Below, one piece after another: positions 1-12,746 of a stretch of 64,000 nucleotides of DNA. Made by a program: the position numbers and the translations under genes. Within the stretch, counting starts at the first letter, position 1, and every line of letters starts with the position of its first letter. Below the pieces are notes generated by a model that saw only the letters and a list, made by a program, of their open reading frames with translations, was not told the origin of the DNA and did no database searches. The stretch comes from an uncultured bacterium (lineage in GTDB: Bacteria > Edwardsbacteria > AC1 > EtOH8), in the NCBI GenBank assembly GCA_937863685.1, contig CALMGM010000010.1, positions 84,158 through 148,157 of the forward strand. The letters run 5' to 3'.

Positions 1-2
1 AG

Positions 3-197
3 GCCCAGAAGATACACCTTAAACAATTCTCCCTTATCAAGGCCCTGTTTGTGGAGACCAGCCCGGGGCCGGTCAAAGCCGCTCTAAATCTGATGGGTCT
101 GTGTCACGCTGAAATGCGTATGCCGCTGGTGGAGGTATCGGACACCACCAGGAAACTGCTTAAGGCCGAGATGAAAAAATATGGATTGATAATCTGA
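3..197 (+). CDS. dapA: 4-hydroxy-tetrahydrodipicolinate synthase, C-terminal fragment (5' end outside window)
   Basis: Frame-3 translation ...PGPVKAALNLMGLCHAEMRMPLVEVSDTTRKLLKAEMKKYGLII* resembles the conserved DapA C-terminus (PIPVK..LNLMG motif); TGA at 195-197. Confidence 0.55.
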   Translation, partial: AQKIHLKQFSLIKALFVETSPGPVKAALNLMGLCHAEMRMPLVEVSDTTRKLLKAEMKKYGLII

Positions 198-200
198 CCG

Positions 201-737
201 ATGTCCCGGCTGTTGTTGCATATCTGCTGTGCGCCCTGCCTCTGTTATCCGCATCAGGTGCTGTCGGATGAAAAGGCGGATATCGCAGGCTTCTGGTTCA
301 ACCCCAATATCCATCCTTACCGGGAATACCAGGCGCGACTGGGATCGGTCAGGGATTTTGCCCAAAATCACGGGCTGGAAATGATATATGACGATTCCTA
401 CCCGTTGGAGGAAAATATTTCCCTGTTGCTGAAGGAGCGCTGCCGGGCTTGTTATTCCACCCGGCTGGAGATCACCGCACGGGAAGCCGTCCGCCGGGGA
501 TATGATGGATATTCCACCACCCTGCTGTACAGCATCTATCAGAAACACGACCTGATCAGAGATCTGGGGACGGCCATCGGCAAAAGAAACGGGGTGGAGT
601 TCATCTACCGGGATTTCAGAAAAGGCTGGGAGGAGGGCCGGGCCAAGGCCAAAGAACTTGACCTATATCGCCAAAAATATTGCGGTTGTGTCTTCAGCGA
701 AAGGGACAGATACCTGAAGAATAAAAACCAAATATAA
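201..737 (+). CDS. queH: epoxyqueuosine reductase QueH (DUF208 family)
   Basis: N-terminal LLLHICCAPC cysteine motif and overall DUF208/QueH-like sequence; lies close to queA and tgt. Confidence 0.7.
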   Translation: MSRLLLHICCAPCLCYPHQVLSDEKADIAGFWFNPNIHPYREYQARLGSVRDFAQNHGLEMIYDDSYPLEENISLLLKERCRACYSTRLEITAREAVRRGYDGYSTTLLYSIYQKHDLIRDLGTAIGKRNGVEFIYRDFRKGWEEGRAKAKELDLYRQKYCGCVFSERDRYLKNKNQI

Positions 738-755
738 AATATCAAAAATAAAGCG

Positions 756-1181
756 ATGAGCCGTAATAAAGAAAAAGTGCTGCGTTTTGGAGTTTCGGTG
801 GAAGAGGGTTTGATCGAAAAGTTCGAAAAACTCATCCGGCGCAAAGGATACACCAACCGCTCCGAGGCCATCCGGGACATGATCCGAAGCCTGCTGGCGG
901 CCGAGGCGGCAGACAAGGGCCAGGAGATGGTGGGGGCCATTCTGATAATCTATGACCACCACCGTCCTCGCCTGGTGGAGAAACTGCTGGCCCTGCAGCA
1001 CGATGCCGACGCCGAGATCATCGCTTCCCAGCATGTTCACCTGGACCATCAGCACTGCATGGAGACCATTATCGTCAGGGGACCGGTGGAAAAACTGGAG
1101 GCCCTGCAGGGAAAGATCGGCGCCTTAAAAGGAGTGGGGCAGTGCCTGCTTTCCAAGGCCAGCTGTCAAGTGCTGCATTGA
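756..1181 (+). CDS. nikR: nickel-responsive transcriptional regulator NikR
   Basis: Ribbon-helix-helix N-terminus (RFGVSVEEGLIEKFEKLIRRKGYTNRSEAIRDMIR) plus a C-terminal metal-binding domain with HVHLDHQHC His/Cys cluster; sits directly upstream of a Ni/Co ECF transporter operon. Confidence 0.8.
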   Translation: MSRNKEKVLRFGVSVEEGLIEKFEKLIRRKGYTNRSEAIRDMIRSLLAAEAADKGQEMVGAILIIYDHHRPRLVEKLLALQHDADAEIIASQHVHLDHQHCMETIIVRGPVEKLEALQGKIGALKGVGQCLLSKASCQVLH

Positions 1182-1198
1182 GGAAAGAATAATATTTC

Positions 1199-1227
1199 TT
1201 GACAGGATTTGTCAACCGTGCTACAAT
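1199..1227 (+). promoter_or_regulatory. sigma70-type promoter: TTGACA, 17-bp spacer, TACAAT
   Basis: Perfect -35 TTGACA (1199-1204) and near-consensus -10 TACAAT (1222-1227) read directly; located between nikR and the downstream OMP/transporter genes. Confidence 0.5.
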
Positions 1228-1244
1228 TATAATAATCGTAGCAC
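1218..1244. promoter_or_regulatory. 27-bp dyad GTGCTAC-N13-GTAGCAC overlapping the -10 element; candidate NikR operator
   Basis: Perfect 7-bp inverted repeat arms, read directly. Overall geometry resembles the E. coli NikR operator (6-bp arms, 16-bp spacer). A second dyad TTGACAggattTGTCAA (1199-1215) overlaps the -35 element. Confidence 0.35.
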
Positions 1245-1277
1245 GATTTTATTTTATCGGAGCCCACTGTCCTATAA

Positions 1278-2000
1278 TTGATAAAGGATAAACCCGTGAA
1301 AAAAATGTTCCTTCCCCTGCCCATTATTATAAATATAACTGTTGCCGCAACGCTCTGGGCGGCCCGTCCTTTGTCCACGGACGATGCCGGCACGGTGGAG
1401 AAGGAGAAATTTGAAACCGAGATATCCTTCGATCATTGCCAATCCCGCCCGGAAGGCACTTGCCAGTCACCGGCTTTTTTCATCAAACACGGCCTGACCG
1501 ACCGTTTGGACTTCGGGCTGGGTTTTTCTCACAGCACCGACAAGGATGCCGACGGAAACACGGTGGGTTGGGGGATGTCTCCTTTGGAGATCGGCTTTAA
1601 AATGGCACTGCTGAAAGAAAATCAGACGATGCCGGATATTTCCCTCAGCGCCGGATATGAGACCGGCGGAACGGAGTACGGCCTGAATATGATATTTAGC
1701 CGGGGGTATGGCAATCTTGGGCTGCACGTTAATTTGGGCTATGATTCCCCGGGTGAAGCCATGGCCAAAGGCAGCGTTGGTTCGGCGCTGGCAGCGGAAT
1801 ATACTTTAGCTGGAAAATACCGGCTGTGCGCCGAGTTTAATGCTGAAGCGCTGGACGACGGGTCTGAAGTGGTCGGGAATAGCGGGTTGGTGGGCGGCTC
1901 GCTGGATTTTGGTCTTCTGATCTGGGATGCCGGCCTTCGGTTGCACGATCACCACGGCCCCAAGGCCACCATTACTTCTGGCATCACCGCTGGATTTTAA
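1278..2000 (+). CDS. putative outer-membrane beta-barrel protein (signal peptide; true start possibly GTG 1296 or ATG 1305)
   Basis: Hydrophobic N-terminal signal sequence, alternating beta-strand-like segments, C-terminal aromatic residue (…ITAGF); first gene after the NikR-associated promoter. Confidence 0.4.
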   Translation: MIKDKPVKKMFLPLPIIINITVAATLWAARPLSTDDAGTVEKEKFETEISFDHCQSRPEGTCQSPAFFIKHGLTDRLDFGLGFSHSTDKDADGNTVGWGMSPLEIGFKMALLKENQTMPDISLSAGYETGGTEYGLNMIFSRGYGNLGLHVNLGYDSPGEAMAKGSVGSALAAEYTLAGKYRLCAEFNAEALDDGSEVVGNSGLVGGSLDFGLLIWDAGLRLHDHHGPKATITSGITAGF

Positions 2001-2016
2001 ATAACGGGGAGATCAT

Positions 2017-2883
2017 ATGAGAATCTGGGTTATATCGCTGCTGTCGGCGGGAATTATTCTGACAGGCTGTTCAAAAAATGAAGAGCAGGCCCGGCTGACC
2101 GTGGTTACTTCCTTCTATCCCATGTACATCATGACCGCCAATCTCGCAAAGGATGTTCCCGGTGTTAAATTGGTCAATATGGCCCCGCCGTTCTCGGGTT
2201 GCCTGCATGACTATCAGATGACTCCCCAGGACATGAAGACCCTGAGCCGGGCGGATATTCTGGTGATCAACGGAGCCGGGATGGAATCATTCCTGGACAA
2301 TGCTATCCGGCAAAATACAAAGGTGTCGGTGATAGATGCCAGCAAGAATATTGAATTGATCGAAGAAAACGGCAATGCCAATCCCCATATATTTGCCAGC
2401 ATTTCCGGGGCCATCCAACAGGTGCGGAATATCGAAGCCGGGCTGGAAAAGGCTGATCCTGAACATGTCAAATTATATCGCCGCAATGCAGAGTCATATT
2501 TATCCAAGCTGGAAGTACTGAAAAACAAAATGCATCTGGCTCTCAAAAACGTTAAAAACAGAAATATCATCACCTTCCACGAAGCCTTTCCCTATTTTGC
2601 CCGGGAGTTCGATCTGAACATTCTGGCGGTGATAGAAAGGGAGCCAGGCTCCGAGCCCAGCGCCGGGGAGCTGGCCAGGACCATCGAGTTGGTAAGGAAA
2701 AACAAGATCAAAGCCCTTTTCGCCGAACCCCAGTATCCGGTTAAATCGGCTGAGACCATAGCCCAGGAGACGGGGGCCAAGGTGTATAGCTTGGATCCCG
2801 GCGTCACCGGCTCCATGGAGCCGGATGCTTATATTAAGGCCATGGGGAAAAATCTGGAAGCGCTGAAGGAGGCCTTAAAGTAG
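2017..2883 (+). CDS. periplasmic metal-binding protein, ZnuA/TroA (cluster A-I) family lipoprotein
   Basis: Lipoprotein signal (LTGCS), HDYQMTP motif, NPHIF motif and general ZnuA/TroA-like layout; RBS GGGGAG upstream. Confidence 0.7.
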   Translation: MRIWVISLLSAGIILTGCSKNEEQARLTVVTSFYPMYIMTANLAKDVPGVKLVNMAPPFSGCLHDYQMTPQDMKTLSRADILVINGAGMESFLDNAIRQNTKVSVIDASKNIELIEENGNANPHIFASISGAIQQVRNIEAGLEKADPEHVKLYRRNAESYLSKLEVLKNKMHLALKNVKNRNIITFHEAFPYFAREFDLNILAVIEREPGSEPSAGELARTIELVRKNKIKALFAEPQYPVKSAETIAQETGAKVYSLDPGVTGSMEPDAYIKAMGKNLEALKEALK

Positions 2884-2915
2884 CCTTCATTGAAATATCT
2901 AAGGAGTCATGAACT

Positions 2916-3959
2916 ATGCATATGGCAGATGCCCTGATCTCGCCGGCGGTGGGCGCAACAATGTGGGCCGCTACCGCCGGAGCGGCCGCCTATTCCATCA
3001 AAAAGGTCCAAAGCAAGCTGGATGATAAAAAGATCCCCTTAATGGGAGTGATGGGGGCTTTTATATTTGCCGCCCAGATGATCAATTTTTCCATCCCAGG
3101 GACCGGCTCCAGCGGCCATCTGGGAGGAGGCCTTATTTTAGCCATTTTGCTTGGGCCGTATGCCGGGTTTTTGGCCATGGCTTCCATCCTCATCATCCAG
3201 GCGTTATTCTTTGCCGATGGCGGTCTGCTGGCTCTGGGTTGCAACATCTTCAACCTGGGTTTCTTCACCTGCTTCGTGGCCTATCCTTTGGTTTATAAAA
3301 ATATGATCGGGAAGGAGTTTTTCGCAAAACGGATTATAATTGCATCAATGGTTACCGCCATAATAGGACTTCAGCTGGGGGCTTTCGGAGTGGTCCTGGA
3401 AACGCTGTTCTCCGGGAAAACAGAATTGCCTTTCAGCAGCTTCGTCCTCTTGATGCAGCCCATTCACCTGGCTATCGGGATCGTCGAAGGACTGGTGACG
3501 GCGGCCGCAGTATCCTTTGTATGGAAGGCCCGACCGGAGATAATGGAGAAGGCCGCTTTGAATCAGGCGTTAGGTGCATTGCCCATAAAAAAGGTTATGA
3601 TAGGACTGGCCGCCATTGCGGTTTTCACCGGCGCGGTGCTGTCCTGGTTTGCCTCGTCCCACCCGGACGGGCTGGAGTGGTCAATGTTCAAGACCTCGGG
3701 AAAAGAGGAATTGGAAGCTTCAGGCAACATCCACCAAAAGCTGGCAGCGATTCAGGGGGAAACGGCCTTTTTGCCGGATTACGGATTCAAGGCAGCCGGT
3801 AAAATAGAGCCAACAGAAGAGCAAACAGAAAAATGGCCGGCGGTCAACGGCGGCACCAGCCTATCCGGACTGGTGGGCGGAATGATGACCCTGCTGTTGG
3901 CGGCTTTTATGGGCTTTATAATCAACGTGAAAAACAAAGTCAAAAAAAGATCTGAATAG
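2916..3959 (+). CDS. cbiM: ECF transporter substrate-specific component CbiM/NikM with C-terminal PDGLE domain
   Basis: Typical CbiM N-terminus MHMADALISP (MH… start), multiple TM helices, C-terminal HPDGLEWS motif (PDGLE domain); AAGGAG RBS 9 nt upstream. Confidence 0.7.
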   Translation: MHMADALISPAVGATMWAATAGAAAYSIKKVQSKLDDKKIPLMGVMGAFIFAAQMINFSIPGTGSSGHLGGGLILAILLGPYAGFLAMASILIIQALFFADGGLLALGCNIFNLGFFTCFVAYPLVYKNMIGKEFFAKRIIIASMVTAIIGLQLGAFGVVLETLFSGKTELPFSSFVLLMQPIHLAIGIVEGLVTAAAVSFVWKARPEIMEKAALNQALGALPIKKVMIGLAAIAVFTGAVLSWFASSHPDGLEWSMFKTSGKEELEASGNIHQKLAAIQGETAFLPDYGFKAAGKIEPTEEQTEKWPAVNGGTSLSGLVGGMMTLLLAAFMGFIINVKNKVKKRSE

Positions 3960-4071
3960 AATCCTGATGCAGGGATAAAATCAGGCATAAATAAAGATGA
4001 AAAACCTGTAGCCTTGGTGTCACTGCGGCTTTGTTCAGCAACTGCTTTATGGTAAAAGTTTAAGGAAGCAT

Positions 4072-4881
4072 ATGTCCAATATCGTGAATGCCATGTATAA
4101 CATCCGGCAGTTCGATGAACTGGCCCGCCGGGATTCGCTCATCCATCGGATGCACCCCCTGGCGAAACTGTTGGCCACCCTGGTTTACACTGTGCTGCTG
4201 GTCTCCTACGATAAGTATGCCACCATTGCCCTGCTGCCATTTGTATTCTTTCCGGTATACGTTGCCGCCGCGGCCAAAATTCCCTTAGAACCTCTGCTGA
4301 AGCGTCTTTTGTATATCGAACCGATGATAGTGGGCATCGGCCTTTTGAATCCGTTGTTCGACCACGGCACCGTTGTCGTTTTGGGATATGCCATATCTTC
4401 GGGCTGGCTGATCTTCTTATCCATATTTTTGAAAGGAACTTTGGCCGTGACCTCGGCGCTGCTGTTGATAGCCACCACCGGGATGGACGGGGTGGCGCTT
4501 TCCTTAAGAAAACTGATGGTTCCCAAGATATTCGTCCTGCAGATGATGTTGACCTACCGTTATATTTCCGTTCTGCTGGAGGAGGCCGCCCGAACCGTCC
4601 AGGCCTATGACTTGCGGGCGTTCAGTTCCCAGAGGCTTAAAAGGGAAGTGTGGGGTCCGCTGCTGGGGCAGATCCTTATAAGAACCATGGACCGGGCCCA
4701 GAGGATCTATGATGCCATGTGCCTGCGGGGTTTTTCCGGCGAATACTGCATTGGGAAAGCGGCCCGTCCTGGCTGGAAAGATATTATTTATGTCATGACC
4801 TGGGGAGTATTATCGGCCGCGTTCCGGGGGATAAACCTTCCCCTATGGTTGGGCAACTTGCTTACAGGAGCCGGTAAATGA
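4072..4881 (+). CDS. cbiQ: ECF transporter transmembrane (T) component CbiQ
   Basis: Polytopic membrane protein of CbiQ/EcfT type, between cbiM and the ATPase; stop overlaps the cbiO start (ATGA). Confidence 0.65.
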   Translation: MSNIVNAMYNIRQFDELARRDSLIHRMHPLAKLLATLVYTVLLVSYDKYATIALLPFVFFPVYVAAAAKIPLEPLLKRLLYIEPMIVGIGLLNPLFDHGTVVVLGYAISSGWLIFLSIFLKGTLAVTSALLLIATTGMDGVALSLRKLMVPKIFVLQMMLTYRYISVLLEEAARTVQAYDLRAFSSQRLKREVWGPLLGQILIRTMDRAQRIYDAMCLRGFSGEYCIGKAARPGWKDIIYVMTWGVLSAAFRGINLPLWLGNLLTGAGK

Positions 4882-5636
4882 GCCACCATATAACCGAAGG
4901 CAAAGACCTTTTTTATGCTTATCCCGACGGTCACCAGGCTGTCAATGGCATATCCTTTCGCATCCACCACGGGGAATCGGTGGGCATCATCGGCGCCAAC
5001 GGAGCTGGAAAATCCACCCTGCTGATGCTTTTGACTGGCATTCTGATGCCGGCAAACGGCGAAGTGATCATCGGCGAGGTCAGACTCAATAAAGATAATA
5101 TGGCCATGATAAGACAAAGGCTGGGGATGGTGTTCCAGAATCCCGATGACCAGCTTTTCATGACCACGGTCCATGATGACGTGGCCTTTGGCCCGCGCAA
5201 CCTCAAGATCGACGAGCCCCAGGTAGAGCAGAGGGTGGTCTCGGCCCTGGAGCAGGTCGGCATATTGCACCTTAAGGATCGGGCTCCGTTCCATCTTTCG
5301 GCCGGGGAAAAACGGGCAGCGGCCATCGCCTCAGTGCTGTCCCTGATGCCGGATATTCTGATACTGGACGAGCCGACCTCATCGCTGGACCCCAAGTCCC
5401 GCCGGCGGCTGATGAAAATCCTGGGCGGATTTGAGCATACCAAGATAATCACCTCGCACGATCTGGATATGGTGTTGGATATCTGTCAGCGGGTTATTGT
5501 CATGAAAGACGGACAGGCCATAGCCGACGGCCCGGCCAAAGGTGTTCTGACGAACAAGGTACTGATGGAGGAGGCCGGGCTGGAGATGCCGTTAAGCCTG
5601 CAAGGGTGCCCGGTGTGCGGCGGGGAAAAAACATAG
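4878..5636 (+). CDS. cbiO: ECF transporter ATPase (A) component CbiO
   Basis: Walker A GANGAGKST, ABC signature LSAGEKRAA, Walker B ILILDEPTS. Confidence 0.8.
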   Translation: MSHHITEGKDLFYAYPDGHQAVNGISFRIHHGESVGIIGANGAGKSTLLMLLTGILMPANGEVIIGEVRLNKDNMAMIRQRLGMVFQNPDDQLFMTTVHDDVAFGPRNLKIDEPQVEQRVVSALEQVGILHLKDRAPFHLSAGEKRAAAIASVLSLMPDILILDEPTSSLDPKSRRRLMKILGGFEHTKIITSHDLDMVLDICQRVIVMKDGQAIADGPAKGVLTNKVLMEEAGLEMPLSLQGCPVCGGEKT

Positions 5637-5681
5637 GACACGGATAAACACGGATTTTTGTTAAGTATTGATTTTGACGCA

Positions 5682-5706
5682 GACGCCCTTTTGGGGCGTC
5701 TTTTTT
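5682..5706 (+). terminator. rho-independent terminator after cbiO
   Basis: GACGCCCttttgGGGCGTC hairpin followed by TTTTTT. Confidence 0.6.
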
Positions 5707-5711
5707 ATAAA

Positions 5712-5740
5712 TTGAACAAACCATTATCCTATGCTATAAT
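5712..5740 (+). promoter_or_regulatory. candidate sigma70 promoter for queA (TTGAAC-17-TATAAT)
   Basis: Hexamers read directly; a structured ~150-nt leader follows before the queA ATG. Confidence 0.35.
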
Positions 5741-5908
5741 AAATAAAATAAGAAATCAAACCCCGTCACTCTTTTATTCCTAAGGGAGGGGAGAAAGGGG
5801 ATGAGTTTGTATGTTTTCCGCGGCCTGGATTCCCTTATTCAAGGGAATGACAATAAGACCTTTTGCGTTCTCCGCGGCTCTGCGGTAAAATTAATAGTGT
5901 GATAAATT

Positions 5909-6928
5909 ATGAAACTTTCCGATCTCGACTATAAACTACCCGAAGAATTGATAGCCAAGCAACCCGTTGAGAAAAGGGATGCCTCACGGCTGATGGTGCT
6001 TCATCGCGGTGACGGCCTGATAGAACACCGTCGTTTCAGCGACATTGCTGAATATCTTAACCCCTCCGATATCCTGGTGGTAAACAATACCAAGGTGATC
6101 CCCGCCCGGCTGATCGGGCATAAAAAAGGGACCGGCGGGGAAGTGGAGATTCTTTTATTAAGGCCTGAATCGGATAATCTATGGAACTGCCTGGTTCGTC
6201 CGGGCCGCCGCCTGATGCCGGGGGCACAGGTCGAGTTCAAGGATGGAATGATGGATGCCGAGATCGTCGAACACCGCCCAGGCGGACAGCGGCTGGTCAG
6301 ATTCACTCAGCAGGACGACTTTTATCAAGCCCTGGAAAAGGTGGGACAAGTGCCACTACCGCCATATATCGACCGGGATCCTCATGAGGCGGACAAGACC
6401 CGCTATCAGACCGTTTATGCCAAGGAAAAAGGTGCCGTGGCCGCCCCCACTGCCGGATTGCATTTTACTCCGGAGCTTTTGGCTTCCGTAAAAAACAAAG
6501 GAGTTGAAGTCCTGGAAATTCTTTTACATGTCGGATGGGGAACGTTCAAAGGGGTGGAGGCCGAGGATATTCGGGAGCACAAGATGGATGCCGAGTACTA
6601 CAGCATAAGTCAACCAATAGGCAAAAAATTAGAAAAAGCGAAAACAGAAAATCGGAGAATAATCGCTGTGGGGACCACCACCAGCCGGGCTTTGGAGAGC
6701 TACGGGCAGAGCGGCAAATTATCGGATTGGACCGAGATATTCATCTATCCGCCCTATGAGTTCAAGATCGTCGATGCTTTGATCACCAACTTCCACCTGC
6801 CGAAGTCCACTTTGATCATGCTGGTATCGGCCCTGGCCGGGCGGTCGAAGGTGATGGAGGCCTACCAAGAGGCGATCAAGGAGAGATACCGGTTCTACAG
6901 CTACGGCGACGCCATGCTGATAGTCTGA
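5909..6928 (+). CDS. queA: S-adenosylmethionine:tRNA ribosyltransferase-isomerase
   Basis: Full-length similarity to QueA (MKLSDLDYKLPEELIAKQPV…, TTSRALES, FYSYGDAMLI). Confidence 0.9.
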   Translation: MKLSDLDYKLPEELIAKQPVEKRDASRLMVLHRGDGLIEHRRFSDIAEYLNPSDILVVNNTKVIPARLIGHKKGTGGEVEILLLRPESDNLWNCLVRPGRRLMPGAQVEFKDGMMDAEIVEHRPGGQRLVRFTQQDDFYQALEKVGQVPLPPYIDRDPHEADKTRYQTVYAKEKGAVAAPTAGLHFTPELLASVKNKGVEVLEILLHVGWGTFKGVEAEDIREHKMDAEYYSISQPIGKKLEKAKTENRRIIAVGTTTSRALESYGQSGKLSDWTEIFIYPPYEFKIVDALITNFHLPKSTLIMLVSALAGRSKVMEAYQEAIKERYRFYSYGDAMLIV

Positions 6929-7017
6929 ACCACCCCCAACCCCCTCCTTGATCAAGGAGGGGATGAAGGGGATGTCTATTCATAAAAACTATAACCCATG
7001 AAGTCCAGCGTGAAAAG

Positions 7018-8139
7018 ATGCAATTCAAATTAGAACATACTTCCGGCAAAGCCAGGCAGGGGGCGATCACTACCGCCCATGGGGATATCCCGACGCCCAT
7101 CTTCATGCCGGTGGGCACCCAGGGCACGGTCAAGGCCATGACCCCGCAGGATCTTGAAAACGTCGGCGCCCGGATCATTCTGGGCAATGCCTACCATCTA
7201 TACTTAAGGCCCGGACAGGAGATGGTCAAAAAGGCCGGGGGGCTCCATCAGTTCATGGGTTGGGACCGGCCGATCCTCACCGATTCCGGGGGGTTCCAGG
7301 TCTTCAGCCTGGCCGACCTCAGGAAGATCAAAGAAGAAGGGGTGGAGTTTCAGTCGCACCTGGACGGCTCCCATCATAAATTCACCCCCGAGAATGTGAT
7401 GCAACTGGAAGTGAACCTGGGGGCCGATATCATAATGAATTTCGACGAGTGCATTCCCTATCCCTCCAGCTATGAATATACCGAGGATTCCACCGCCCGG
7501 ACCACCCGCTGGGCCAAAAGATGCCGCCAAAAATTCCTGGAGATGAAAGACGGCGATATCGACAGCCAGGCGCTTTTTGGGATCGTCCAGGGCGGGACCT
7601 ATCCGGAACTTCGCCAGCGCAGCGCCCGGGAAATGGTGGAGATCGGCTTCGAGGGCTACGCCATCGGCGGGCTGGCCATCGGGGAGCCCAAGGAGGCCAC
7701 CTGGGAGGCCATCGAAGCCGCCAACCAGATCCTTCCCGCCGACAAACCAAGATACATGATGGGAGTGGGCTTCCCCGAGGACATCATCAAAGGCGTCTCC
7801 CTGGGGGTGGACATGTTCGACTGCGTGATCCCCACCAGGAATGCCCGCAACGGCAGCCTGTTCACCTCCAATGGCAAACTGGCCATGAAGAACGCAGTAC
7901 ATCAGGATGACCTGGGTCCGGTGGACGAAAGTTGCGACTGCTACCTGTGCCGCAACTTCAGCCGGGCCTATTTAAGGCACCTGTTCATGTCCGGGGAGAT
8001 CCTGGCCGCCCACTTGGCCACGGTGCACAACCTACGGTTCTATCTGGCGATGATGGAAAATATAAGGCAAGCCATATCAGACAATAAGTTTGATGAATGG
8101 AGCCAGGAATTTCTTGGCAGATATCAAAGCCAGCAATGA
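7018..8139 (+). CDS. tgt: queuine tRNA-ribosyltransferase
   Basis: Tgt hallmark segments (HGDIPTPIFMPVGTQGTVK, zinc site CxCxxC…H: CDCYLCRNFSRAYLRHL). Confidence 0.9.
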   Translation: MQFKLEHTSGKARQGAITTAHGDIPTPIFMPVGTQGTVKAMTPQDLENVGARIILGNAYHLYLRPGQEMVKKAGGLHQFMGWDRPILTDSGGFQVFSLADLRKIKEEGVEFQSHLDGSHHKFTPENVMQLEVNLGADIIMNFDECIPYPSSYEYTEDSTARTTRWAKRCRQKFLEMKDGDIDSQALFGIVQGGTYPELRQRSAREMVEIGFEGYAIGGLAIGEPKEATWEAIEAANQILPADKPRYMMGVGFPEDIIKGVSLGVDMFDCVIPTRNARNGSLFTSNGKLAMKNAVHQDDLGPVDESCDCYLCRNFSRAYLRHLFMSGEILAAHLATVHNLRFYLAMMENIRQAISDNKFDEWSQEFLGRYQSQQ

Positions 8140-8154
8140 ACCTGCTGGCTTTTA
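8128..8154 (+). terminator. terminator hairpin overlapping the tgt stop
   Basis: AGCCAGCAatgaaccTGCTGGCT followed by TTT. Confidence 0.4.
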
Positions 8155-8233
8155 AAACATCCCATTATAAGTATTGCTTTTATGGATATAATCCGTATAA
8201 TGGATGGTACATCATATTTCAAAGGAGATATAG

Positions 8234-8889: not shown

Positions 8890-10317
8890 ATGAGCAAGCA
8901 ATTTTATAATATAAATCAATACTGGATATCGTCCGCCGATAGTAGCAAAGACTGCTATCCCAGCAGTATTGTCCTGAGGAAAGCCGAGGTCCTGGTGACG
9001 ACTGGAATGTGGGACAAGGCGACCAATATGTATCAGCAAGTCCTGGCTGCCGGAGAACGCTTGGGGGCAGATCCAGAAAGGGCCGAGAGCCTTTACCGGC
9101 TGGGCGAGGTGTTTAGGCTGAAGAGCGAATATCCGGAGGCATTGGAGCATTTGTCAAAAGCGATGCATTTATATCAGGAACTAAGGGACGGCGGGGGAAC
9201 AGCCAAAACCGTAGGCGCCATGGGCGGAGTTTACGGTGAGCAGGGAGATTATCAGAAGGCCATAGAATGTTTTAGCGAACGGAAAAACTGGGCGGAAAAA
9301 ACCGGGGATAAGATGGAGCTGGGTATAGCCTGGGGAAACCTGGGGGTGATCTATGCCGAGCAGAAGATGCTGGACCAGGCCCTGGAGTGCTATCAAAAAC
9401 AAAAAGCTCTGGCTGAGTATATAGGCGATTTGGTGGGGTTATCATTTGCCTATGGGAATTCGGGCAATATATATATCCATAAAAGCCAATATGAGACGGC
9501 TATTGACTGTTTTCAAAAGCAGATGGATCTGTCAAAAAGGATCGGTGATAAAAGGGCATTATGTGCTGTTTCCTGTAATCTGGGACTGCTTTTTAAGAAG
9601 CAAGCGAAAATGGAACAATCACTGGAATATTTTAACCAAGCCATCAGATCCGCTTCCGAAATAGGCTATTCCCGGGTGGTGTCTCAGGCTTATGGAAACA
9701 TCGCCACAGTATATCAAAATCTTGGGGATTTGGAACAAACCGAAAAATGCCTGAATGAATATCTAAAACTAAATCGAGAAGTGAATGATAAGCCCGGGGT
9801 TGTCATTGCTCTGGGGAAAATGAGTAAACTGAAAGAAAGATTGGGAGATATTGAAAAAGCAAAAGCGCTTTTGTCCGAATCATTGGATATTTCCAGGGAT
9901 AATAAGTTTGAAGGACTTTTGCCAATTTTGCTTATTATGATGGGGGAATTGCTGTTGGAGCAAAACGCTTATTCCGATGTCGCAAAGATAGCCGGCGAGG
10001 CATATCAAGTAGCCCAGAAGCAAAATAACCAGGAACAATTAGAGACAGTCCGGATATTGCAATTGCTGTCGGAAATCGGTCAAGGCAATATTTCAGCTGT
10101 TGCCGGACTTATTGAAATTGCCAAGGAGAGCATTTATGATGAGGTCCGGCTGGGGGCCTGCATGGGTCTGTATAAACATACCGGTGAAAATATTTATTTG
10201 AAAGCAGCCGGGGAGCTTTCGGATAAGTTATATGCCGAGACCAGGGAAGTAGAATACAAGATCAGGATGGACCAGCTGCGAGCCACGCAGCCGAAAGAAA
10301 TGGATACAACCATATGA
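8890..10317 (+). CDS. tetratricopeptide (TPR) repeat protein (ORF opens at TTG 8863; ATG 8890 preferred)
   Basis: Successive ~34-aa units with an A..Y..A/G..Y pattern (e.g. [22 protein letters not shown]); lower GC than neighbours; stop overlaps the copA ATG. Confidence 0.6.
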
Positions 10318-12746
10318 AGAAAATCGAGATCCCCGTCAGCGGGATGCACTGCGCCTCCTGTGTCAATAACGTCGAGCAGTACCTGAAAAAGCTGGGAGGG
10401 ATAGTTTCTGCCAGCGTAAATCTGGCCGCCGAGAAGGCCTTCATCGAATACGATGAAAGCCGGATCGATATCGCCGGGATAGTCACAGCCATCAACGATT
10501 CGGGTTATCAGGTTCCGGTCCAGAAGCTCTCCCTGCCGGTGGGCGGGATGCACTGCGCCTCCTGCGTGCTTAACGTGGAGAGGGCCTTGACGAAAAGTCC
10601 GGGCGTGATCTCGGCCAGCGTCAACCTGGCCACCGAGAGGGCCGATGTCGCCTATCTTCCGGATGCGACGGATAGGGAGCAGATAAAAACCACCATCACC
10701 GATGCCGGATACCAGGTGCCGGAAGGATCCGCTCAAACCGGAAATATATCGGTTGCTCCGGCGGTCTCATTGGATGCCCGGCGGGAGGAATATTACCTGT
10801 CGCTCAAGCGAAGGTTCTGGTTTGCCCTGATATTCGCCGTTCCGGTCTTTTTGGGCGGGATGCATATGTTCCTTTCCTTCATCCCCCGCTGGTTTTATGA
10901 TCCTTATGTGATGCTGGCCCTGGCGGCCCCGGTCCAAATATTCTCCGGCTGGCCGTTCTACCAGGGCTTGTGGGCCTCCATAAAACGGCGCAATGCCGAT
11001 ATGAACACTTTGGTGGCGGTGGGAACCACCGCCGCCTTCGGCTACAGCCTGGCGGCCACCTTCTTTCCGGAGTTCTTCGCCGGTGCGGGACGGGAACCGG
11101 CCTACTACTACGATTCGGCGGCGGTGATCATCACCTTGATCCTGCTGGGTCGGATGCTGGAAGCCAACGCCCGGGGACGGACCTCGGAGGCCATCAAGCG
11201 GCTGATCGGTCTGCAGGCCCGGACCGCCCGGATATTCAAAGACGGCGGCGAGTTAGAGGTGCCGATGGAACAACTGGCAATTGGGGATATCATTATCGTC
11301 CGGCCGGGCGAAAAGATAGCCACCGACGGCGTCATCACCGAGGGATATTCCTCCATCGACGAATCGATGATCACCGGGGAGAGCATTCCGGCCGACAAAA
11401 ACATCGGCGATAAAGTGGTCGGCGGCACCATCAACAGGACAGGGGCTTTTCGCTTCAGGGCTTCCAAGGTCGGGCGGGACACCGTGCTGGCCCAGATCAT
11501 CAGAATGGTGGAGGAGGCCCAGGGCAGCAAGGCGCCCATCCAGCGGCTGGCCGACCGGATCGCCTCGGTGTTCGTGCCGATAGTGATGGCGGCCGCCGGC
11601 CTCACCTTCACGGTCTGGCTGATCTGGGGGCCCTCCTTCAACCTGGCCCTGATCAACGCGGTGGCGGTGCTGGTGATCGCCTGCCCCTGCGCCCTGGGGC
11701 TGGCCACCCCCACCGCCATCATGGCCGGCACCGGACGGGGGGCCGAGCTGGGGATACTGATCCGGCGGGGCGAGGTGCTGGAACAAACGGGCAGCATCAC
11801 CAGCATCCTGTTCGACAAGACCGGAACGCTTACCTCCGGAAAGATCGCCGTAACCAATGTAGCGGTGATGCCGGAGTTCGCCGAGGACGATCTATTGTCC
11901 TTGGCTGCCTCGGCCGAGATTTCCTCCGAACATCCCATAGGCCGGGCCATAGTGGATTACGCCAAGTTGAAAAAAATATCATTGGTGGACGTATCGGATT
12001 TCAAGGCCCTGCCCGGCTCCGGCCTCAGCTGCCGGGCGGGCGGCCGATTGGTGGAGATCGGCAACCGGCAGATGATGGAGCAGAAGGAGTATACCAAACT
12101 GGAGAAGCTGTCCGGCCGCCTGCAGCAGGAGGGCAAGACCGTGATCTATGCGGCCATAGATTCCAAGCCGGCCGGGATCATTGCGGTGGCCGACACCCTG
12201 CGGGATAATGCCGTTCGGGTCATTGCCGACCTTAAGGGTCTGGGACTGAAGACCGCCATGATCACCGGGGATCACCAGGAAGCGGCCATGAATATTGCCG
12301 GACAGCTGGGGATAGACCAAGTGATGGCTCAGGTGTTGCCGGGCGACAAAGCGGAGCAGGTAAAAAAAGCCCAGACCGGCAACATCAAAGTGGCCATGGT
12401 GGGCGACGGCATCAACGATGCTCCGGCCTTGGCTCAGGCCGATATCGGCATAGCCATGGGGCGGGGCACCGATGTGGCCATCGAATCAGCCGATATCATA
12501 CTGATGGGGGACAACCTGGAGCTGATAGCCAAGTCGCTGAAGCTCTCCCGGGCCACCCTGAGGATAATCAAGCAGAATCTTTTCTGGGCCTTCTTCTACA
12601 ATATCATCGGGATCCCGGTGGCCGCCGGGGTGCTGTATCCATTTTTTGGGATACTGCTGAACCCCATGTTCGCGGCGCTGGCCATGGCCTTCTCGTCGGT
12701 CAGCGTGGTGAGCAACAGCCTTAGGCTTAGAAAATGGAGAGGATAA
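10314..12746 (+). CDS. copA: copper-translocating P1B-type ATPase with two N-terminal HMA domains
   Basis: Two GMHCASC metal-binding motifs, CPC transmembrane motif ([11 protein letters not shown]), DKTGTLT phosphorylation site, GDGINDAP. Confidence 0.9.

Follow-up and report, generated by a model that had tools for sequence, protein, structure and literature searches.

The window analysed here is a stretch of 64,000 nucleotides (64 kb) of contig CALMGM010000010.1 (positions 84,158 to 148,157), from an uncultured bacterium placed by GTDB in the Edwardsbacteria. Near its start lies nikR, followed by five genes encoding a predicted outer-membrane beta-barrel, a lipoprotein of the ZnuA/TroA (cluster A-I) family of metal-binding proteins, and the three parts of an energy-coupling factor (ECF) transporter—the S component Nik(MN), the T component NikQ and the ATPase NikO. 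ZnuA-ECF linkage is rare outside the bacterial groups TA06 and Edwardsbacteria, and the ZnuA gene is the unusual element of this operon. Full-text searches of the literature library used turned up no paper that places a ZnuA/TroA-type protein under NikR control or beside CbiM/NikM.

All six open reading frames lie on the forward strand (Table 1). The identities and order assigned to them in a first-pass annotation of the sequence were confirmed by Pfam and NCBIfam profile searches on the window proteins and, for the barrel, by a structure model. The successive gaps in front of the ZnuA-like gene, nik(MN) and nikQ are 16, 32 and 112 bp, and nikQ and nikO share 4 bp. Newly recognised are a strong promoter and a perfectly palindromic NikR operator, both located upstream of the barrel gene in the interval that follows nikR, as well as a terminator after cbiO (nikO). 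The promoter is the best promoter-like site in positions 1-7200 of the window, and the terminator is the strongest and the sole convincing terminator-like site in the same interval. Because one promoter and operator precede the barrel gene and one terminator follows cbiO, the barrel, ZnuA-like, nik(MN), nikQ and nikO genes appear to form a single NikR-controlled transcription unit. The earlier placement of the ZnuA-like gene in the same apparent unit as cbiM, cbiQ and cbiO thus stands. The 112-bp stretch that separates nikQ from nik(MN) (3960-4071) measures only 5-7 bp in two related loci (L007, L010) and is unconserved in two others (L004, L009); RNA fold prediction on it revealed nothing unusual (z = 0.56).

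Table 1. Features of the nickel operon and its flanks, in window coordinates
Feature	Position	Strand	Basis or remark
queH	201-737		queuosine gene, upstream flank
nikR	756-1181	+	nickel-responsive ribbon-helix-helix repressor
Predicted sigma-70-type promoter, TTGACA, 17 nt, TG-TACAAT	1199-1227	+	11 of 12 consensus positions, extended -10 TG
Predicted NikR operator, GTGCTAC-N13-GTAGCAC	1218-1244	none	palindrome 1214-1248, overlaps the -10 hexamer
Predicted outer-membrane beta-barrel gene	1296-2000 (open reading frame from 1278)	+	AlphaFold2, Foldseek
ZnuA/TroA-family (cluster A-I) lipoprotein gene	2017-2883	+	Pfam PF01297
nik(MN), CbiM fused to PDGLE	2916-3959	+	Pfam CbiM and PDGLE
nikQ/cbiQ, ECF T component	4072-4881	+	Pfam CbiQ, TIGR02454
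nikO/cbiO, ECF ATPase	4878-5636	+	Pfam ABC_tran
Predicted intrinsic terminator	5681-5701	+	9-bp stem with 6 GC pairs, then TTTTTTATAAA
Separate predicted queA promoter	5712-5740		downstream of the operon terminator
queA	5909-6928		queuosine gene, downstream flank
tgt	7018-8139		queuosine gene, downstream flank

NikR matches the Pfam profiles RHH_1 and NikR_C (3e-26) and scores 137 bits with the NCBIfam model NF003381, above the model's cut-off of 105. It aligns to the solved proteins 2bj1, 2ca9 and 1q5v, and the nickel-site residues H82, H93, H95 and C101 are conserved in the alignment. The operator is an inverted repeat with 17-nt arms. The NikR consensus of delta-proteobacteria is GTGTTAC-N13/14-GTAACAC (PMC545781), and the operator in the window departs from it by one symmetric transition in each half-site. 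It is the sole match in the window at up to two mismatches, with 0.10 expected by chance. When about 2.0 Mb of fetched related loci were scanned for the box at up to one mismatch, every match lay before the homologous operon or beside nikR or nik(MN) of other lineages. The box is conserved before the homologous operon in eight TA06/Edwardsbacteria loci (L004-L011) and in a TA06-type locus, L092; throughout these nine the ZnuA gene always lies between the box and nik(MN), and in L007 it follows the box directly. Ni-NikR would be expected to bind this operator and to repress the unit by occluding the -10 box.

One of the Edwardsbacteria loci, L004, has a larger NikR regulon, in which a second NikR box precedes a hypothetical gene and a TonB-dependent receptor gene. 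Also encoded at this locus (1390-8187) are a WG-repeat protein, His-rich in its tail, and a cupin of 107 aa, the start of its gene overlapping the stop of the ZnuA gene. The window holds neither a second box nor the receptor, the WG-repeat protein or the cupin. As a periplasmic partner the Edwardsbacteria cupin was rejected, being without a signal peptide.

By every sequence criterion tested the pump belongs to the Nik(MN)QO kind, and as such it is an ordinary ECF transporter of nickel type. In a single protein, Nik(MN) matches CbiM (9e-60, residues 1-209) and PDGLE (PF13190, 1e-30, residues 225-337); weak matches to CbiN models fall at residues 227-282, and the PDGLE part is a NikN-like two-helix module. 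The best solved relatives of the S component are of the NikM2 type (4m58/4m5b, 90 bits, versus 30 bits for CbiM 5x3x). Its M1-H2 and H68 are conserved and align to the metal-binding N-terminus (MH) and the GTTAH motif of 4m58. NCBIfam labels it 'cobalt transporter CbiM' at scores under the cut-offs. NikQ matches Pfam CbiQ (7e-30) and TIGR02454 (ECF_T_CbiQ; 129 bits, cut-off 111.8), and NikO matches ABC_tran (2e-33), its best NCBIfam hits being ECF ATPase models at 235-237 bits, under the equivalog cut-offs. The first-pass annotation had left the metal as nickel or cobalt; NikR, its box and the NikM2-like M1-H2/H68 site mark the system as nickel-type rather than ambiguous between the two. That annotation had also regarded the fusion of CbiM to PDGLE as unusual, which it is not, because all 80 metagenome loci retrieved with the window Nik(MN) (61-80% identity) carry it, with CbiQ and CbiO next wherever the contig reaches. 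A fused nik(MN)QO controlled by NikR has been on record for Geobacter since 2004 (PMC545781). Known Nik(MN)QO systems, represented by that of Geobacter and by the NikM2 structures 4M58/4M5B, resemble the one in the window in their fused M and N, their Q and O, their type of NikR operator and their Met1-His2/His67-type site. They differ in having neither a periplasmic binding protein nor a dedicated barrel in the operon, whereas here both are present and conserved in the clade.

The binding protein belongs to the TroA family, as had been proposed: it matches PF01297 at 8e-69 (232 bits, cut-off 29), residues 29-286 covering positions 1-263 of a profile of 263. It has a lipoprotein signal with the lipobox LTGC and Cys18. 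The candidate ligands H64, H124, H188 and D260, together with C62, are invariant across the family alignment. In the sequence alignment the ligand candidates fall on the HxY, NPH and HxAF motifs of solved relatives; the relatives in the PDB are 6ru4, YcdH and SitA. No NCBIfam equivalog among those for ZnuA, AztC, MntC and AdcA was passed, the best being AztC, whose 144 bits fall short of the 350 required. The closest relatives are named Candidatus Edwardsbacteria (81-82% identity, within a band of 81-85%) and candidate division TA06 (67-76%), which puts the window in this uncultured group. Across this clade, at 67-85% identity, the gene has a ratio of non-synonymous to synonymous substitution rates (dN/dS) of 0.09-0.23 at dS 0.7-2, values comparable to those of nikQ and the barrel gene. 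It is under purifying selection across TA06/Edwardsbacteria.

The TA06 proteins were also compared with 51 relatives linked to ZnuBC. The sole clustered change is at residues 126-128 (window 2392-2400), where NPH(I/V)WVS becomes NPHIFA(S/G). Two residues past H124, all 51 ZnuBC-linked relatives have Trp where all 35 proteins of the TA06 clade have Phe; the two positions after it are altered as well, from VS to A/V-S/G. Lying beside the candidate ligand H124, this change may tune the metal site. Relaxed constraint and wholesale neofunctionalisation were both sought in the TA06 ZnuA clade, and neither was found. The first-pass annotation had suggested a look at metal-specificity residues; the candidate ligands match those of the ZnuBC-linked relatives and give no nickel-specific signature.

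The barrel gene probably starts at GTG 1296 or ATG 1305, and not at 1278; the later starts give a normal signal peptide, MKKMFLPLPIIINITVAATLWA|ARP, and the protein has 234 aa counted from 1296 or 240 aa from 1278. It has no Pfam match even at E<=5. The AlphaFold2 model is all-beta with 12-13 strands (predicted local distance difference test 83.6, predicted template modelling score 0.73), and its best solved matches in Foldseek, at probability 1.00, are the FapF barrel (E 3e-6, template modelling score 0.6-0.68) and the 12-stranded porins NanC and KdgM. About 55 homologues were found, the few that bear names being from Edwardsbacteria or TA06. PF13557 (Phenol_MetA_deg, an outer-membrane 'transporter' family) matches three of 33 aligned homologues, down to 1e-11; these three are distant (29-33% identity), and the window protein itself has no match. 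The gene has a dN/dS of 0.11-0.20. As a prediction, the identification of the product as an outer-membrane beta-barrel is well supported. It is a candidate outer-membrane entry channel, and it may conduct nickel.

How unusual the company of the ZnuA gene is can be seen from both sides. On the ZnuA side, 80 species-representative genomes were sampled among the matches listed, with relatives at 51-63% identity. About 50 of these 80 listed relatives show the order ZnuA-ZnuC-ZnuB, often with a Fur/Zur-like gene, while between about a quarter and a third of the loci listed have no adjacent ZnuBC, some being short contigs without flanks. At six loci among the matches listed (L014, L018, L033, L036, L057 and L065), ZnuABC and Nik(MN)QO are no more than 8 kb apart. 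In one of them, from Omnitrophota (L057, 7412-12896), a Fur-family gene, znuA, znuC, znuB, cbiM/PDGLE, cbiQ and cbiO are contiguous on one strand. ZnuA-family genes without ZnuBC also adjoin genes for ZIP-family transporters, in a Bacillota locus behind a NikR-like gene (L016, 5435-8047) and in Victivallis (L025, 3350-5394); both add to the instances of this family next to a metal transporter that is not of the ABC (ATP-binding cassette) type. On the Nik(MN) side, the ZnuA gene is inside the operon at one of the 80 loci, L092, in keeping with the earlier judgement that the pairing is unusual; at one other locus znuACB is 5 kb off, and at another there is a convergent orphan ZnuA gene. In most TA06/Edwardsbacteria loci the barrel gene or other small genes precede the ZnuA gene, and in some a cupin gene follows it.

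No permease of the ABC-3 (ZnuB, PF00950) type was found near these genes. A tblastn search of the 64-kb window with ZnuB and ZnuC, in which Zur was also sought, matched only CbiO and gave no ABC-3 protein. At the TA06-type loci tblastn found neither ZnuB (ABC-3) within 7-8 kb nor ZnuC; the same held at L087, a Zixibacteria-like locus, and neither gene was among the called genes of two others, L172 and L173.

The Zixibacteria-like loci (L087, 47-4560; L172/L173, 2386-6859) present a variant of the operon. They have the same slot, DHDPS-nikR ... queA-tgt, and the same NikR box, followed by a barrel homologue, a ZnuA-like gene (54-56% identity) and a gene for a 237-aa, six-helix, His-rich permease which replaces Nik(MN)QO. 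A gene for a small membrane protein is also listed there, between nikR and the barrel homologue. In L087 the permease gene overlaps the ZnuA stop by 4 bp. The permease has no Pfam match, and its family was placed by precomputed PF13386 (DsbD_2) assignments on homologues and by the contexts of those homologues, which are named variously nickel/cobalt transporter, exporter, TauE, sulfite exporter, NicO and RcnA. Its first helix carries HTVLGPDH, near the HupE/UreJ signature HPXXGXDH (PMC7689651). In Syntrophorhabdus aromaticivorans (L175/L176, 1-5714) the same permease family stands directly behind hypF-hypC-hypD-(DUF362)-hypE. A nickel importer is favoured for this permease because of the hyp-gene context in Syntrophorhabdus and the apparent repression by NikR.

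The slot is thus the same and the transporter is swapped, and therefore the barrel and the binding protein travel as a pair with two unrelated inner-membrane transporters. The constancy of the pair despite the exchange of importer is the strongest argument that it acts upstream of, and independently of, the importer type. In the ZnuA tree the TA06 and Zixibacteria clades each receive 100 of 100 bootstraps, while their union receives 10 of 100. Because the tree leaves this union unsupported, a common origin of the two modules rests on synteny, on the identity of NikR (67-73%) and on the barrel homologue.

These observations suggest, tentatively and with a little less than an even chance, that the lipoprotein belongs to a periplasmic nickel-capture module which feeds whichever inner-membrane importer is present and hands its metal over, in the manner of NikK. 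When nickel is plentiful, NikR would shut the operon off. When nickel is scarce, NikR would leave the operator overlapping the -10 box and one mRNA would be made for the five proteins. The small outer-membrane barrel would admit nickel to the periplasm, where the membrane-anchored ZnuA-type lipoprotein would capture the ion via its His/His/His/Asp site, raising the local concentration at the inner membrane. From there the metal would reach Nik(MN), the S component, at an N-terminal site that faces away from the cytoplasm (Met1-His2 and His68). Loading of this site would presumably be assisted by the fused PDGLE/NikN module, and NikQ and the NikO ATPase would drive import. On this scheme the lipoprotein would bind nickel, and its recipient would be the importer and not a permease of the ABC-3 type. 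A wider proposal makes the ZnuA/TroA-type protein and its own small outer-membrane channel a portable NikR-controlled module for nickel capture in the periplasm, which would serve an ECF transporter in TA06/Edwardsbacteria and a His-rich DsbD_2/UreH-like secondary permease in Zixibacteria; on that proposal, which has to be regarded as rather doubtful, a classical cluster A-I binding protein would be seen to assist an ECF transporter for the first time.

A broadly similar interpretation—a route from outer membrane to cytoplasm with a non-canonical periplasmic component—had been offered in the first-pass annotation. It is partly supported, and is strengthened by the operator, the conservation across the clade and the Zixibacteria variant. 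Several considerations weigh on the other side. By definition, ECF transporters need no binding protein. In the DNA fetched, 77 of the 80 Nik(MN)QO loci have no ZnuA-like gene, and because of this a binding protein is not needed by the pump as such. The interpretation loses weight because the fusion is common and because the lipoprotein has kept a zinc-type sequence: of the 87 positions with 90% or more conservation among the 51 ZnuBC-linked relatives, 75 are retained in the TA06 proteins, all the ligand candidates included. The protein can hardly be told apart from those relatives, which have Fur/Zur neighbours, and as far as its sequence goes it contains nothing that identifies nickel. Its metal binding, its role in transport and its contact with the importer are proposed from sequence and context. 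A ZnuBC partner may lie elsewhere in the genome, the observed absence covering the 64-kb window and the flanks of the related loci, and the fur-like-znuACB-nik(MN)QO arrangement of the L057 type shows a route by which a znuA could be left behind beside nikMNQO.

The last two points lead to the alternative that has to be taken most seriously, namely that the lipoprotein is an orphan binding protein whose docking partner for the transport of zinc or nickel is still an importer of ZnuBC type (ABC-3), encoded at another place in the genome, and that its position in the nik operon is a relic of an ancestral znuACB-nik(MN)QO cluster. The contiguous cluster of L057, the proximity of ZnuABC to Nik(MN)QO in the five other loci, the prevalence of ZnuC-ZnuB as next neighbours (often with a Fur/Zur-like gene) and the retention of family-conserved positions are what this history would leave. 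Sharing of a distant permease is plausible because so many of the sampled family members lack an adjacent ZnuBC. Set against this, the gene is under a NikR operator and not a Zur-type one, being the first gene after the box in L007, and it stays with nickel importers in two lineages which use different importers. The 64-kb window holds no ABC-3 permease, and at dS>1 a mere relic would be expected neither to have stayed in place nor to show a dN/dS as low as 0.1-0.2. On balance, an orphan with a distant partner seems unlikely.

It is improbable that the lipoprotein instead acts as a periplasmic buffer or selectivity filter, either holding a reserve of nickel or scavenging competing zinc or copper so as to spare the N-terminal nitrogen-ligand site of NikM. 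The ZnuA gene is closely coupled to the importer gene, with the 4-bp overlap in L087 and gaps of 23-39 bp elsewhere; this tight coupling suggests matched amounts and joint function, and a lipid anchor in the membrane suits hand-off better than bulk buffering. A buffer would nevertheless account for a ligand set that is the same as in zinc-type relatives, and a module found beside two different importers fits a role without specific docking. There is also a precedent in Zcp, the periplasmic zinc-capture protein of Neisseria (DUF4198, the NikK family), which binds periplasmic metal yet is dispensable for uptake (PMC12663993). Like the lipoprotein proposed here, Zcp is periplasmic, is induced by metal limitation and supports supply without being the docking protein of an importer (PMC12663993); it differs in having another fold, in its regulation by Zur and in being monocistronic and outside a transporter operon.

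Import of cobalt or another divalent metal under a regulator that is merely NikR-like is very improbable: the CbiM and NikM families do overlap, some Nik-type systems are predicted cobalt carriers (PMC2667541) and the NCBIfam name of the S component is that of a cobalt transporter, though at scores below the cut-offs, but NikR scores above its curated equivalog cut-off and keeps the His/His/His/Cys nickel site, the operator fits the NikR consensus, the S component is far closer to NikM2 than to CbiM (90 versus 30 bits) and no B12 gene is found among the open reading frames annotated from queH to tgt (riboswitches and the remaining window not being part of that search).

The favoured reading, nickel capture in the periplasm for an adjacent importer, has parallels among known systems, none of which it matches in full. 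In NikKMLQO, too, a NikR-regulated operon encodes a nickel pump of ECF type and, besides it, a further component that is predicted to be periplasmic and may bind metal (PMC545781, PMC2667541). NikK/NikL systems lack NikN, however, whereas here N is fused, and the extra protein is of PF01297 and not of DUF4198 (PF10670), for which Pfam searches gave no match on the operon proteins. The analogy to NikK/NikL drawn in the first-pass annotation is therefore one of proposed function and not of family membership, the N module being present and DUF4198 absent. With ZnuABC, TroABCD and AztABCD the lipoprotein shares full-length PF01297, the His/His/His/Asp pattern and the lipoprotein signal, and its ZnuA-ZnuC-ZnuB relatives are at 51-63% identity; unlike them it has no ABC-3 permease or ZnuC within 64 kb, is under NikR and not Zur, and neighbours an ECF transporter or a secondary permease. 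NikABCDE is also a NikR-repressed route of nickel uptake which uses a periplasmic binding protein (PMC2667541). NikA, however, is one of the peptide/nickel family of binding proteins and has the NikBC permeases as its docking partners, while the operon in the window has a ZnuA-type protein and an ECF importer.

Among the neighbouring genes, the queuosine genes listed in Table 1 flank the nickel operon in TA06, Edwardsbacteria and Zixibacteria loci alike. nikR begins 18 bp past queH and may be co-transcribed with it. A few kb downstream, an 810-aa open reading frame (10314-12746) opens with a heavy-metal-associated motif and is syntenic with a heavy-metal-associated/E1-E2 P-type ATPase gene in L004; it probably encodes a copper or heavy-metal efflux ATPase.

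If a distant ZnuBC partner exists, this would be an ordinary nickel operon with a stranded gene. If the lipoprotein does feed an ECF pump and, in a sister lineage, a secondary permease, there would be exceptions to two rules: that ECF transporters, the textbook case of ABC importers without binding proteins, need none, and that cluster A-I proteins, as generally assumed, pair only with ZnuB/TroCD-type permeases. It would also place a nickel member in a family annotated as zinc or manganese binding, which would affect the automatic annotation 'zinc ABC transporter substrate-binding protein'. More generally, periplasmic metal capture would then be a separable module, swapped between importer types in diderm bacteria.

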